Positions 5,126 through 60,231 of a stretch of 64,000 nucleotides of DNA are shown one piece after another. The stretch is from Escherichia coli (lineage in GTDB: Bacteria; Pseudomonadota; Gammaproteobacteria; Enterobacterales; Enterobacteriaceae): assembly GCF_965641715.1 (NCBI RefSeq), contig NZ_OZ282453.1, one strand, 5' to 3'. How positions within the stretch are numbered: position 1 is the first letter of the stretch; each line of letters starts with the position of its first letter. The notes below the pieces were generated by a model. It ran no database searches and had not been told where the DNA came from. It saw only the letters and a list, made by a program, of their open reading frames with translations. Position numbers and translations under genes: made by a program.

Positions 5126-5206
5126 TATTGTTCTGTATGCCGGATAAGGTATTTACACCGCATCCGGCATTACGGATTCTCCCTGGTTCAAGAGAGAATA
5201 GTTTGA

Positions 5207-6106
5207 TTAACGCAATAATGGACAATCTGGTGGTAATCGACAACGCAACGCCGCCGGAAGTATTTCAATATGGAAGTTTTGCCCACTCAACGGTTCGCCA
5301 TCAAGATTAAAAGTGATTTCGTGTGGGGCTTGTATATCAAACCACGACGAAGCGCCTTCGATAATATTCGGGTTATCTTCGTCAGATTTTAAGGTTGATA
5401 CGAGAGCCGGAAGAATTTCATCGCCGGTAAAAATGCGCAGTTGCAGCAAGCCATCGTTAATTAACGCGTTCGGACACAATTGCTGACCGCCACCGGCCTG
5501 ACGCCCGTTACCAATACCAATGACCAGGGCGTCACCTTGCCAGTGAAAGTTTTCACCGCGGATTTCACAACGGTCCGGTTGCAGAGTATCCATGCGCATT
5601 AAGCCATGAATGATGTAAGAGACGCCACCCAGCGCGGCTTTTAATTTTTCCGGCGTTTCTGTGGTAATACGTGTCCCAAACCCGCCTGTCGCCATATTAA
5701 TAAAACAGGTTTGTTTGTTGACCTGCGCCATATCTATCGCAATGGCGTTACCGGCAATTGCCAGTTTCAGCGCCTTATCCAGTGCCTCAGGAATCCCTAC
5801 ACTGGTGGCAAAATCATTGGCGGTTCCTAATGGCAAAATTCCCAGCGCGGGTATGTTATCCCCCTCACACTGAATCAACGCCGTAGAAACTTCATTAATG
5901 GTGCCATCGCCACCACCGGCAATCACCGTTGCGACGCCCAACTTCCGGGCCTCCTCTACATATCGTGCGGCATCGCCTTTCTCCCAGGTGACCCGCACAT
6001 GGATCGTCATTCCTTCCTCACGCAACAGCATAATTGCTTCGCGCAATGGTAAATTGTCAGTACTTTTGCCATTAAGAATCAGTAAGCTGGCGGGAAATTC
6101 TGCCAT
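5207..6106 (-). CDS. yegS: Lipid kinase YegS (diacylglycerol kinase-like fold)
   Basis: 299-aa ORF with GGDGT motif; position next to gatR as in K-12. Confidence 0.85.
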
Positions 6107-6519
6107 GATCGTATGTGCCTTTATGATTGGTCTGTAGATAGTGTAGAGCAGAAAAGAAAAGGTGGAGTCAGAACAGGATGAAAGTCGGAGGATAAAAAGT
6201 CAGTTCAAGTATGGGGGATTCAGTGGTTACCACCAGGAGCTTGCAATGGGAACAGCGAATATTAACGGTAGCCACCGATAAATTTCAAAAAAGAGCATAT
6301 GCCTAATATTCAACCAAACAGTGGCATCTTAAATATACTATTCCAAATATATTAAAGCCCCCATGGAGTTACCCGGAAGGGCCTCCATGTCCGTAATTCC
6401 TACTTATGTAGGAAATGTTGTACAGAACATTTATTATAATCCTATTCAAATATAATAATCAGCCATTATTATATTTAAACACTAGAGAGTGTCGTTGGTA
6501 TTTAATGGGGAAAGGTGAG

Positions 6520-6837
6520 ATGAAAAAGATAGCTGCTATATCATTAATTAGTATTTTTATTATGTCTGGTTGTGCTGTGCATAATGATGAGACAAGTATC
6601 GGTAAATTTGGTCTTGCATATAAAAGTAATATTCAGCGTAAACTCGATAACCAATACTACACCGAAGCCGAAGCTTCTTTAGCCAGGGGCAGAATATCTG
6701 GTGCAGAAAATATAGTAAAAAATGATGCAGCCCATTTCTGTGTTACTCAGGGCAAAAAAATGCAGATAGTTGACCTGAAGACAGAAGGTGCAGGATTACA
6801 TGGCGTCGCTCGTCTGACATTCAAATGTGGAGAGTGA
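6520..6837 (+). CDS. yegR: Small lipoprotein YegR (105 aa)
   Basis: Start chosen at MKKIAAISLISIFIMSGC lipobox signal peptide preceded by aaaggtgag RBS; the longer ORF from 6415 is rejected. Confidence 0.7.
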   Translation: MKKIAAISLISIFIMSGCAVHNDETSIGKFGLAYKSNIQRKLDNQYYTEAEASLARGRISGAENIVKNDAAHFCVTQGKKMQIVDLKTEGAGLHGVARLTFKCGE

Positions 6838-6995
6838 GAATATTTTTTGGTAAGCGTCAAACATGCGCGTTCTGGTTGTGCTTAGCCGGAACCTGTGCGA
6901 GCACGATGCCAATAAGTGAAAGGCATCGTGCTATGAAGGGAGATTCTATCGATGTGGTCAATGGAAGACGGTGACCAGGGATAGGGCTTATGCAT

Positions 6996-7017
6996 AAAAA
7001 ATAAGCCCGTGTAAGGG
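6996..7017. repeat. attL core: 22-bp direct repeat aaaaaataagcccgtgtaaggg shared with attR
   Basis: Exact repeat found at 6996..7017 and 38957..38978; matches the P2 att core as I recall it. Confidence 0.7.
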
Positions 7018-7101
7018 CGTTTATATACCCTTACAACAGGGGCTTTCAGCGGTGCAATGCGGGTTTGCGCGGCACGCAAGACCACTGAAAGCCATAATAA
7101 A

Positions 7102-8115
7102 CTACCCTACTGTGGACACTGTGTGGACACTCTGAGAGCCAACACCACCACGTAGAGGATTAAGCGTTATCGCGTCCTGTAGGTACTCAGGGGCGAAGTG
7201 CGCATATGTCATTGTCTGCTCAATTCTTGAATGCCCAAGTATTCTCTGAAGCGTGATAATGTTGCCTCCGTTTATCATAAAGTGCGTGGCGAAGCTGTGC
7301 CGCAATGCGTGCGTAGCCTGACCCGGTGGTAGGTCGGGTTTCAGCTCCTTCATTAGCCGTCTGAACGCGGGATAGTTAGCATCAGTGAACAGATAGCCAC
7401 GCTTACCCGTTGTGATCATTGTTGCCAGTTCCTCGGATATAGGAACGGTTCGCGGCTTGTTGGTTTTTGTCTTAACGAAAGTGACGCGATTTTGAATGAT
7501 ATTTTCCGCTTTCAGTTTTGCTGCCTCACTCCATCTCGCGCCGGTGCTAAGGCAAAGAATCGCAATTTTTTTATTATCACCGTCCACTTTTGACAGCAGA
7601 AGCGCGATCTCCTCTTGCGTCAGGTAGCCGGTTTCTGGCTTATCCTCTTTGAGTCTTTTAAGACCTCGGAAAGGATGCTCCCCGAAAAATAGCTCCGCAT
7701 CTATCAACGCGGTAAACATCCCGCTAAGACACGTTAAATCACGATTTATACTCGATGGCTTGATGCCTTGAGAACGCCGCACAGTGCTGTATTGGCTTAT
7801 CAATGACTTAGTAATCTGAAAGGCACAAGGGTCACTGGTTATCTTTGTGAACAACTCTAACTTGCCCAGGTAATCTCGGCCGTGAGTTTCATACTTGCCT
7901 TTCAGCTCCCACCAGATTTTTGTTAGCTCTGACAGATGCCGCTTATCTGTCGGTTTCGCCAACCATTTTTTGTTGTGATGGTTGTACTGGGTATGCTTCT
8001 CGAAAGCGATAGCTTCGCTTTTCTTGTCAAATTTCCTGCGGATGCGCTTTCCGTTGCGCCCTGCAGGTCTAATGTCCACTTCATAACGACCATCATCGAG
8101 CTTTTTAACAGACAT
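7102..8115 (-). CDS. int: P2-type tyrosine integrase (337 aa)
   Basis: Near-identical to remembered P2 Int; start set at MSVKKLDDGRYEV; catalytic R..HxxR..Y region present. Confidence 0.9.
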   Translation of the reverse strand: MSVKKLDDGRYEVDIRPAGRNGKRIRRKFDKKSEAIAFEKHTQYNHHNKKWLAKPTDKRHLSELTKIWWELKGKYETHGRDYLGKLELFTKITSDPCAFQITKSLISQYSTVRRSQGIKPSSINRDLTCLSGMFTALIDAELFFGEHPFRGLKRLKEDKPETGYLTQEEIALLLSKVDGDNKKIAILCLSTGARWSEAAKLKAENIIQNRVTFVKTKTNKPRTVPISEELATMITTGKRGYLFTDANYPAFRRLMKELKPDLPPGQATHALRHSFATHFMINGGNIITLQRILGHSRIEQTMTYAHFAPEYLQDAITLNPLRGGVGSQSVHTVSTVG

Positions 8116-8211
8116 AAAGCCTCCCGATGATGTTACTGCGTACTTCAATTTCCTGATTTAAATAACAAAAACTCACCGTGCATTTACTGCACAGATAAGC
8201 ACCGTAAATGG

Positions 8212-38956: not shown

Positions 38957-38983
38957 AAAAAATAAGCCCGTGTAAGGGAGATT
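38957..38983. repeat. attR core aaaaaataagcccgtgtaagggagatt (matches the 27-bp P2 att core as recalled), overlapping cyaR 3' end
   Basis: Direct repeat with attL; identity to remembered P2 attP core. Confidence 0.75.
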
Positions 38984-39043
38984 ACACAGGCTAAGGAGGT
39001 GGTTCCTGGTACAGCTAGCATTTTATGGGTTATGTTTTTCAGC
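38957..39043 (-). ncRNA. cyaR: CyaR (RyeE) Hfq-dependent sRNA
   Basis: Reverse complement reads GCTGAAAAACATAACCCATAAAATGCTAGCTGTACCAGGAACCACCTCCTTAGCCTGTGTAATCTCCCTTACACGGGCTTATTTTTT, matching remembered CyaR. Confidence 0.75.
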
Positions 39044-39077
39044 GAAGCGGATGATAACCTTAATAAATGCAGCTGTA

Positions 39078-53120: not shown

Positions 53121-53265
53121 AACGGGAAAGCCCCTCCCGAGGAAGGGGCCATAAATAAGGAAAGGGTCATGATGAAGATACTCATCATCGTGGTGCTCTT
53201 AGTGATTAGCTACCCAGCATACTAAGACTACCAGGGCGGGGGAACCCCCGCTCTACCCTCACTCC
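53121..53265 (-). ncRNA. Sib-family antisense sRNA antitoxin (copy 1), approximate ends
   Basis: Antisense to ibs copy 1; minus-strand hairpin ggcccctt..gaggggc + U-tract to the left of ibs start; ends estimated. Confidence 0.4.
53169..53225 (+). CDS. Ibs-family type I toxin peptide, variant MMKILIIVVLLVISYPAY
   Basis: 18-codon hydrophobic ORF with Ibs pattern. Confidence 0.6.
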   Translation: MMKILIIVVLLVISYPAY

Positions 53266-53448
53266 TGAAAGTATGCCTTCACGTTCAGAATGTCAATCCG
53301 CAGGCTTTGCAGTCTGCGATCCTGCCAGCAAATATTCTTTGCGAGACGTTACGCAATAATCACACTTGAAACTATTTTATCCGCAAGTCAGCGATAGACT
53401 GCATACAGGGCGAAAGGAGGTAAGCCGAAGATTTCAGCGGGACGCTGA

Positions 53449-53593
53449 AACGGGAAAGCCCCTCCCGAGGAAGGGGCCTTAAATAAGGAAAGGGTCATGA
53501 TGAAGTGGATCATCATCGTGGTGCTCTTAGTTATTAGCTTGCCGGCTTACTAAGTCATCAAAGCGGGGGAAACCCCGCTCTACCCTCACTCCT
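53449..53593 (-). ncRNA. Sib-family antisense sRNA antitoxin (copy 2), approximate ends
   Basis: As copy 1, by repeat register. Confidence 0.4.
53497..53553 (+). CDS. Ibs-family type I toxin peptide, variant MMKWIIIVVLLVISLPAY
   Basis: 18-codon hydrophobic ORF with Ibs pattern. Confidence 0.6.
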   Translation: MMKWIIIVVLLVISLPAY

Positions 53594-53775
53594 GAAAGTA
53601 TGCCTTCACGGTCAGATTGTCAATCCGCAGGCTTTGCAGTCTGCGATCCTGCCAGCAAATATTCTTTGCGAGGCGTTACGCAATAATCACACTTGAAACT
53701 ATTTTATCCGCAAGTCAGCGATAGACTGCATACAGGGCGAAAGGAGGTAAGCCGAAGATTTCAGCGGGACGCTGA

Positions 53776-53920
53776 AACGGGAAAGCCCCTCCCGAGGAAG
53801 GGGCCTTAAATAAGGAAAGGGTCATGATGAAGCTACTCATCATCGTGGTGCTCTTAGTCATAAGCTTCCCCGCTTACTAAGACTACCAGGGCGGGGGAAC
53901 CCCCGCTCTACCCTCATTCC
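53776..53920 (-). ncRNA. sibB: SibB-like antisense sRNA, approximate ends
   Basis: Antisense to ibsB; by repeat register. Confidence 0.4.
53824..53880 (+). CDS. ibsB: IbsB toxin peptide MMKLLIIVVLLVISFPAY
   Basis: Matches remembered IbsB. Confidence 0.7.
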   Translation: MMKLLIIVVLLVISFPAY

Positions 53921-54103
53921 TGAAAGTATGCCTTCACGGTCAGATTGTCAATCTGCAGGCTTTGCAGTCTGCGATCCTGCCAGCAAATATTCTTTGCGAG
54001 ACGTTACGCAATAATCACACTGGAAACTATTTTATCCGCAAGTCAGCGATAGACTGCATGCATGGCGAAAGGAGGTAAGCCGACGATTTCAGCGGGATGC
54101 TGA

Positions 54104-54251
54104 AACGGGAAAGCCCCTCCCGAGGAAGGGGCCTTAAATAAGGAAAGGGTTATGATGAAGCACGTCATCATACTGGTGATACTCTTAGTGATTAGCTTCC
54201 AGGCTTACTAAGAACACCAGGGGGAGGGGGAAACCTCTCCTAACCCTCACT
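54104..54251 (-). ncRNA. sibA: SibA-like antisense sRNA, approximate ends
   Basis: Antisense to ibsA; by repeat register. Confidence 0.4.
54152..54211 (+). CDS. ibsA: IbsA toxin peptide MMKHVIILVILLVISFQAY
   Basis: Matches remembered IbsA. Confidence 0.7.
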   Translation: MMKHVIILVILLVISFQAY

Positions 54252-54430
54252 TCTGAAATTATGTCACTCCGCCCTTAGTGTCAATCGACGGCTCTCCGTT
54301 CTTGCGAGGCGAATAGCAAAATTTTCTGCGCCGCCGGGCCTAATTCTGAAAGTTTCTTCGTTTGCTCTTATTTCATTATTGCAATCGGTATGATACCGGA
54401 CCTCAATAATTCTCTAAGAAAGGATTTCTT

Positions 54431-60131: not shown

Positions 60132-60231
60132 CGTTGGTCGCCGGAAGCGGTGCGAGCGCCTTGCGGAATGAGCGATTTGTAGGCCTGATAAGACGCGTTA
60201 GCGTCGCATCAGGCAATGGGCAAACGCTCCC

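Follow-up and report, generated by a model that had tools for sequence, protein, structure and literature searches.

The 18-bp inverted repeat TTCCTAC-TTAT-GTAGGAA (6397–6414) upstream of yegR, hereafter palindrome 2, is very probably a site at which a dimer of phosphorylated EvgA activates yegR, and a neighboring inverted repeat, palindrome 1 (6362–6389), is most likely fortuitous, unconstrained, and without function. This reading draws on a motif that is common to EvgA-dependent promoters, on constraint that the repeat shares with a nearby TATAAT, and on published descriptions of EvgA binding at the yegR promoter. The EvgA site at yegR is already known and has been described for K-12. The main value of the present analysis is correct annotation, in that palindrome 2 would place yegR directly within the EvgS/EvgA acid-resistance regulon also in the strain from which the window (the whole 64-kb stretch of DNA that was analyzed) derives.

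The gene that would be controlled by palindrome 2, yegR (6520–6837, plus strand, with its ATG at 6520), is an open reading frame, and annotations of E. coli genomes put yegR at this very place. Its product is a lipoprotein-like protein of 105 amino acids with a precomputed assignment to the Pfam family PF27694, which is named YegR. The divergent neighbor yegS (5207–6106, minus strand), identified by its open reading frame and by annotation in E. coli genomes, encodes a lipid kinase and is separated from yegR by a spacer of 413 nt. The window is oriented in reverse relative to K-12, wherein the equivalent spacer carries no annotated feature. A preliminary description had reported two inverted repeats in an AT-rich setting between yegS and yegR, upstream of the latter, and a direct reading of the sequence bears this out: both repeats are real and lie where they had been placed, and the G+C content is 0.29 to 0.34 around 6300–6600. 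The arms of palindrome 1 (CATGGAG, 6362–6368, and CTCCATG, 6383–6389) are 14 nt apart and enclose an inner CCC-GGAA-GGG, and those of palindrome 2 (TTCCTAC, 6397–6403, and GTAGGAA, 6408–6414) are separated by 4 nt. Both pairs of arms are 100% complementary.

A single perfect 7-nt palindrome is unremarkable by chance. When the spacer is shuffled with its dinucleotides preserved, perfect 7-nt inverted repeats with loops of 3 to 20 nt arise at a rate of 0.61 per 414 nt, with at least one in 37% of the shuffled sequences. The real spacer holds 11 such registers representing about five distinct palindromes, a number reached by none of 2000 shuffles, with a single long AT-rich palindrome (6445–6479; 15-nt, 93% complementary) accounting for six of the 11. 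Another perfect palindrome, AAATGTT-GTACAG-AACATTT (6413–6432), overlaps the edge of palindrome 2 and the −35 position. The significance of palindrome 2 lies in its sequence and its conservation rather than in palindromy itself.

EvgA-controlled promoters reportedly share an 18-bp inverted repeat with TTCYTACA-type arms, a description that is said to go back to Masuda and Church in 2003. The EvgA consensus used here was tested empirically by scanning known target loci. With TTCYTACNNNNGTARGAA as the pattern and as many as two mismatches permitted, a scan of three K-12 loci (62 kb) and the window (64 kb), 126 kb in all, yielded seven matches, compared with a mean of 0.85 expected from first-order Markov simulations. 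All seven are intergenic and are located upstream of emrK/evgA, frc, yfdX, safA, ydeP, and yegR, the last of these both in K-12 and in the window. Palindrome 2, which reads TTCCTACTTATGTAGGAA, matches TTCYTACNNNNGTARGAA without a mismatch, is identical to the K-12 yegR box, and is the sole EvgA-type site of this kind in the 64-kb window. The form TTCYTAC-N4-GTARGAA likewise occurs in those 126 kb only upstream of EvgA targets and yegR. A literal search with the exact 18-mer, allowing up to three mismatches, found no matches in the K-12 EvgA-target loci; the center varies among sites, and a degenerate pattern was needed.

We also built a symmetrized position weight matrix from the five EvgA sites that do not belong to yegR. 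Its top-ranking position in the 64-kb window is 6397–6414 (15.2 bits, with the next best at 11.0), and it ranks the yegR site first in the 20-kb K-12 yegR locus as well. The score of the yegR site is lower than those of the other five (15.2 versus 21.5–26.8 bits) because its center is ACTTATGT instead of ACANNTGT. When the K-12 gadE locus was scanned separately, a match with one mismatch, TTCTTACGCATGAAAGAA, was found inside the mdtE coding region (5887–5904 of the stretch scanned), and the same pattern scan located no clear EvgA box upstream of gadE, which a review lists as bound by EvgA. These two observations indicate that the pattern is imperfectly specific to EvgA-target promoters.

Published work places yegR under EvgA, a LuxR-family response regulator (PMC4797297). 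According to a review, the yegR promoter is strongly bound by this protein (PMC8147483), and inverted repeats bound by EvgA induce yfdX and yfdWUVE (PMC3720670, citing Masuda & Church 2003). An array experiment recorded an 11.9-fold increase in yegR alongside ydeO, yfdX, emrK, and ypdI, and the gene has been grouped with frc and oxc as co-induced, evgA-regulated acid-stress genes (PMC5811628). The spacer is also listed as bound by H-NS (PMC3946193).

Palindrome 2 falls within a nearly invariant block (6393–6449), delimited by per-column variability among 18 strains, that comprises the repeat, a spacer holding the third palindrome, and a TATAAT. The repeat is identical in 17 of the 18 aligned strains, and the exception, strain 2014C-3338, has a G-to-T substitution in the right arm that the left arm does not compensate. 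Among complete E. coli genomes, the 45 nt from 6394 to 6438 are 100% identical in 4681 of 5417. This constraint exceeds that on the surrounding noncoding DNA, wherein only 38 of 5000 genomes have the 45-nt block around palindrome 1 (6352–6396) at 99% identity or more. The divergent N96 allele retains the box (18/18), the TATAAT (6/6), and the spacing between them, with flanks that match at 48/64 and 20/29 positions (about 70–75% identity) and a box-to-TATAAT spacer that matches at 16/20. The third palindrome keeps its arms in 17 of the 18 strains, and a few strains differ in its loop alone. Its left arm is altered in N96 (AAATTCT), and this palindrome is therefore less constrained than the EvgA box. 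The box and the TATAAT stand out as a clean phylogenetic footprint, frozen beside about 60 nt of hypervariable DNA. Part of the conservation of this block could serve other promoters, namely those associated with a second TATAAT and with a promoter-like site on the minus strand.

The perfect TATAAT at 6435–6440 (plus strand) is a candidate −10 element for an EvgA-dependent yegR promoter. A gap of 20 nt separates it from the preceding box, it is invariant in 18 of 18 strains, and no good −35 hexamer is present 17 nt upstream of it. Owing to the missing −35, a promoter scan overlooks the proposed promoter. When seven EvgA-box promoters were aligned, the summed −10 score was highest at a gap of 20 nt, though only marginally (29 versus 27). 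The spacing of box and TATAAT suggests the geometry of a class II activator. If 6435–6440 is the −10 element, transcription would start at about 6447 and the center of the box would fall near −41.5, where EvgA would replace the missing −35 contact (class II activation). The second TATAAT (6451–6456), which is 36 nt downstream of the box, is an alternative −10 element; were it the true one, the box center would be near −57.5 instead. A search of the literature found no transcription start site for yegR. The minus strand carries a strong promoter-like site directed towards yegS (ACGACA-16-TATAAT, 6495 to 6468, 10/12 matches). According to the mechanism that we propose, a dimer of phosphorylated EvgA, the LuxR/NarL-type response regulator in the two-component system EvgS/EvgA for acid stress, would occupy both arms of palindrome 2 and switch on transcription of yegR, and EvgA may act in part by counter-silencing of H-NS.

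Palindrome 1 presents a very different pattern of conservation. It is situated in a hypervariable stretch (6331–6392 in the 18-strain alignment) that is the most polymorphic part of the spacer and directly abuts the invariant 6393–6449. In addition to palindrome 1, in which most of the changes preserve wobble pairing, this stretch holds numerous substitutions, a C-run whose length varies from about 3 to 10, and a 9-nt indel, ACTATTCCA, that is missing from K-12 and O157. Palindrome 1 forms perfect Watson–Crick pairs in three of the 18 sampled strains (the window and two of the 17 others), and in K-12 and three others its right arm reads CTCAATG, which breaks the center of the stem. Beyond the few genomes with a near-identical copy, a further 1090 have block 6352–6396 at 80–90% identity. 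The window allele of palindrome 1 folds with a z score of −2.35, whereas the K-12 allele (z = −0.44) does no better than shuffled sequences. With G-U pairs counted on the plus strand, 94.1% of cells are paired compared with 93.1% in the shuffle control, and a value at least as high arises in 47 of 500 shuffles. For the covariation score the corresponding number is 7 of 500, which is within the stated false-positive range of the tool for related sequences, and covariation was rejected as support for palindrome 1. In most strains the G/C run forms another palindrome, CCCCATGGGG. From these comparisons we conclude that palindrome 1 most likely arose by chance among the G/C runs. The proposal in the preliminary description that the palindromes could be operator sites thus holds in spirit for palindrome 2, which matches the EvgA motif in the yegR promoter region, though as the site of an activator rather than the operator of a repressor; it does not hold for palindrome 1, which is polymorphic and broken in K-12.

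A different view of the two palindromes is that they act as RNA hairpins in a long leader of yegR or yegS and affect mRNA stability or termination, which we regard as unlikely. A yegR leader of this type would begin at a predicted upstream promoter of K-12 (TAAACA-18-TATATT), the −10 element of which ends just before palindrome 1, and a yegS leader would originate from the minus-strand promoter-like site, whose 10/12 match lends this version some weight. Indeed, predicted constitutive promoters are listed in the H-NS-bound spacer by Shimada et al. 2014 (PMC3946193), the region 6355–6445 folds as three consecutive hairpins on either strand (z −3.2 and −2.9), and palindrome 1 maintains its 94% pairing with plus-strand G-U pairs while two pairs are changed on both sides. 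However, that pairing does not exceed the shuffle control and is accompanied by an unfolded K-12 allele, and in most strains the 9-nt insertion leaves 27 nt between the two hexamers of the upstream promoter predicted in K-12. The covariance models of Rfam 15 gave no match at gathering score in the spacer, and at a permissive threshold they returned only chance-level matches to eukaryotic families (E = 2.1 and 8.8). Likewise, no intrinsic terminator (a G+C-rich stem-loop followed by a T-run) was found on either strand in 5900–7200. At palindrome 2, the pattern of constraint fits a protein–DNA site better than an RNA hairpin because the loop and flanks are frozen too and the sole arm change, that of 2014C-3338, is uncompensated. 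For palindrome 1, an RNA role retains a small residual chance. It is also quite improbable that the stretch 6331–6392 is a functional tuning element, either as a 5′ hairpin that differs among strains in a transcript from upstream or through spacer variation, in length and sequence, that tunes the silencing by H-NS or the activation by EvgA of yegR and its divergent neighbor yegS.

Members of the LuxR/NarL family share TAC-type half-sites, and the NarL heptamer is TACYYMT. Palindrome 2 might accordingly be bound by another regulator, from this family or otherwise (NarL/NarP, RcsB, GadE, or YdeO), or might be an operator for the divergent yegS promoter, but we judge this to be very unlikely. TACTTAT (6401–6407) does fit the NarL heptamer, and a yegR homologue elsewhere has a different, RcsB-box-like palindrome that abuts its TATAAT. 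Against this, the partner heptamer of a NarL 7-2-7 site is absent (AGGAAAT compared with AKRRGTA, 4/7), the full 18-bp pattern is common specifically to EvgA-target promoters, the literature names EvgA for yegR, and the literature consulted contains no link between yegS and EvgA. The NarL 7-2-7 and RcsAB-box readings of palindrome 2 were both rejected by direct comparison with the consensus sequences. The preliminary description had also raised the possibility of a REP-like element, and that the palindromes are REP/BIME-like extragenic repeats is almost certainly incorrect. Nothing beyond their short palindromic form and intergenic location speaks for this reading; they occupy a divergent promoter region and not a 3′ end, and they are single-copy in each genome. 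When the spacer plus one base of yegR was used as a 414-nt query, 5423 of 5426 complete E. coli genomes gave a match, at a median of one place, and this query and both 45-nt blocks alike have a median of 1 and a maximum of 2–3 places across about 5000–5400 genomes. The generic, genome-wide REP match that had been named as evidence against a specific role for the palindromes was not seen. The window has no second copy of the exact palindrome 2 or palindrome 1 pattern. A 14-nt REP-tail pattern, CTTATCMGGCCTAC, matched the window with two or fewer mismatches only away from the palindromes, at 5135–5148 and 60179–60192, a count that is not significantly above chance (9 of 100 shuffles reach two). 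The match at 5135–5148 is in the gap between the convergent gatR and yegS genes, which is a typical REP position.

The reading of palindrome 2 as an EvgA site can also be viewed against the distribution of yegR, the product of which is essentially confined to Escherichia and Shigella. A few divergent YegR homologues (47–81% identity) occur in other genomic contexts, and no EvgA-type box is present near them within three mismatches. The box is thus specific to the yegS–yegR locus, which is consistent with a lineage-specific recruitment of yegR into the EvgA regulon. Given their other contexts and the lack of a box, the divergent homologues were rejected as footprints of an orthologous promoter. 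Their genes adjoin genes for a glutaminase, a nitroreductase, and Ivy, and in Enterobacter sp. BIDMC 29 the homologue is located between IS transposases (stretches L026, 1231–2818, L028, and L030). Glutaminase has an acid-resistance function in E. coli. These surroundings hint that yegR is a mobile, stress-associated gene for a small lipoprotein. Upstream of the gene for a homologue with 66% identity, a palindrome, GTAAGAA-TA-TTCTTAAC (about 2440–2470 of stretch L029), directly adjoins a TATAAT. This palindrome resembles an RcsB box, and compared with the EvgA box its half-sites are everted. Elsewhere, homologues of yegR may be under the control of a different member of the LuxR family.

Genome contigs were also scanned for the box followed by N20 and TATAAT. 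This returned six stretches, of which five are from unrelated organisms and probably reflect chance and one is E. coli-like. No Escherichia genome was among them, despite the presence of the exact block in 86% of complete E. coli genomes, and the negative result is therefore uninformative. The E. coli-like contig, DXKH01000116.1, is assigned to a metagenome-assembled genome of “Citrobacter sp.” and contains gatR-yegS-yegR with an adjacent integrase gene. The window and this contig have identical gatR and yegR products and nearly identical yegS products, whereas the integrase of the contig is a more divergent relative. Mis-binning or mislabeling of E. coli DNA is the probable explanation for this contig.

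Other features of the window lie downstream of this locus. Directly after yegR, a P2-like (Peduovirus) prophage appears to start (7102–8148, minus strand) and to extend to about 38900, probably ending at the CyaR sRNA gene (38960–39045, minus strand). Both an Int_N and a Phage_integrase domain are present in the prophage integrase, and at the DNA level the prophage matches phages of the P2 type. K-12 has only the remnant PR-X (ogrK, yegZ) at the same place. Further along, four tandem SIB RNA genes, which specify antitoxin sRNAs, are present at 53154–54284 on the minus strand (Rfam scores of 127–142 bits); the corresponding locus of K-12 has two (sibA and sibB).

REP elements are G+C-rich sequences of about 35–40 bp that exist in hundreds of copies, usually at 3′ ends. 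The palindromes of the window resemble REP/BIME sequences only in being short and intergenic, and they differ in being single-copy, promoter-proximal, and unrelated in sequence. The EvgA boxes of K-12 (emrK/evgA, frc (yfdW), yfdX, safA (b1500)-ydeO, and ydeP) have the same 18-bp repeat as palindrome 2, with TTCYTAC and GTARGAA arms, upstream of an EvgA-induced gene. In contrast to these boxes, that of yegR has ACTTATGT rather than ACANNTGT at its center and hence a 7-4-7 instead of an 8-2-8 arrangement, and yegR lacks a second box nearby of the kind found at yfdX. A further parallel is with the EvgA homologue BvgA, which binds inverted heptads (TTTCCTA-type) at Bordetella virulence promoters. 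BvgA operates in another organism and regulon and often adds secondary sites of lower affinity towards the −35 region. By analogy, however, the two systems would be alike in their inverted T-T-C-C/T-T-A half-sites, in their recognition by a phosphorylated dimer of the NarL/FixJ type, and in the activation of a promoter with a weak −35 element.
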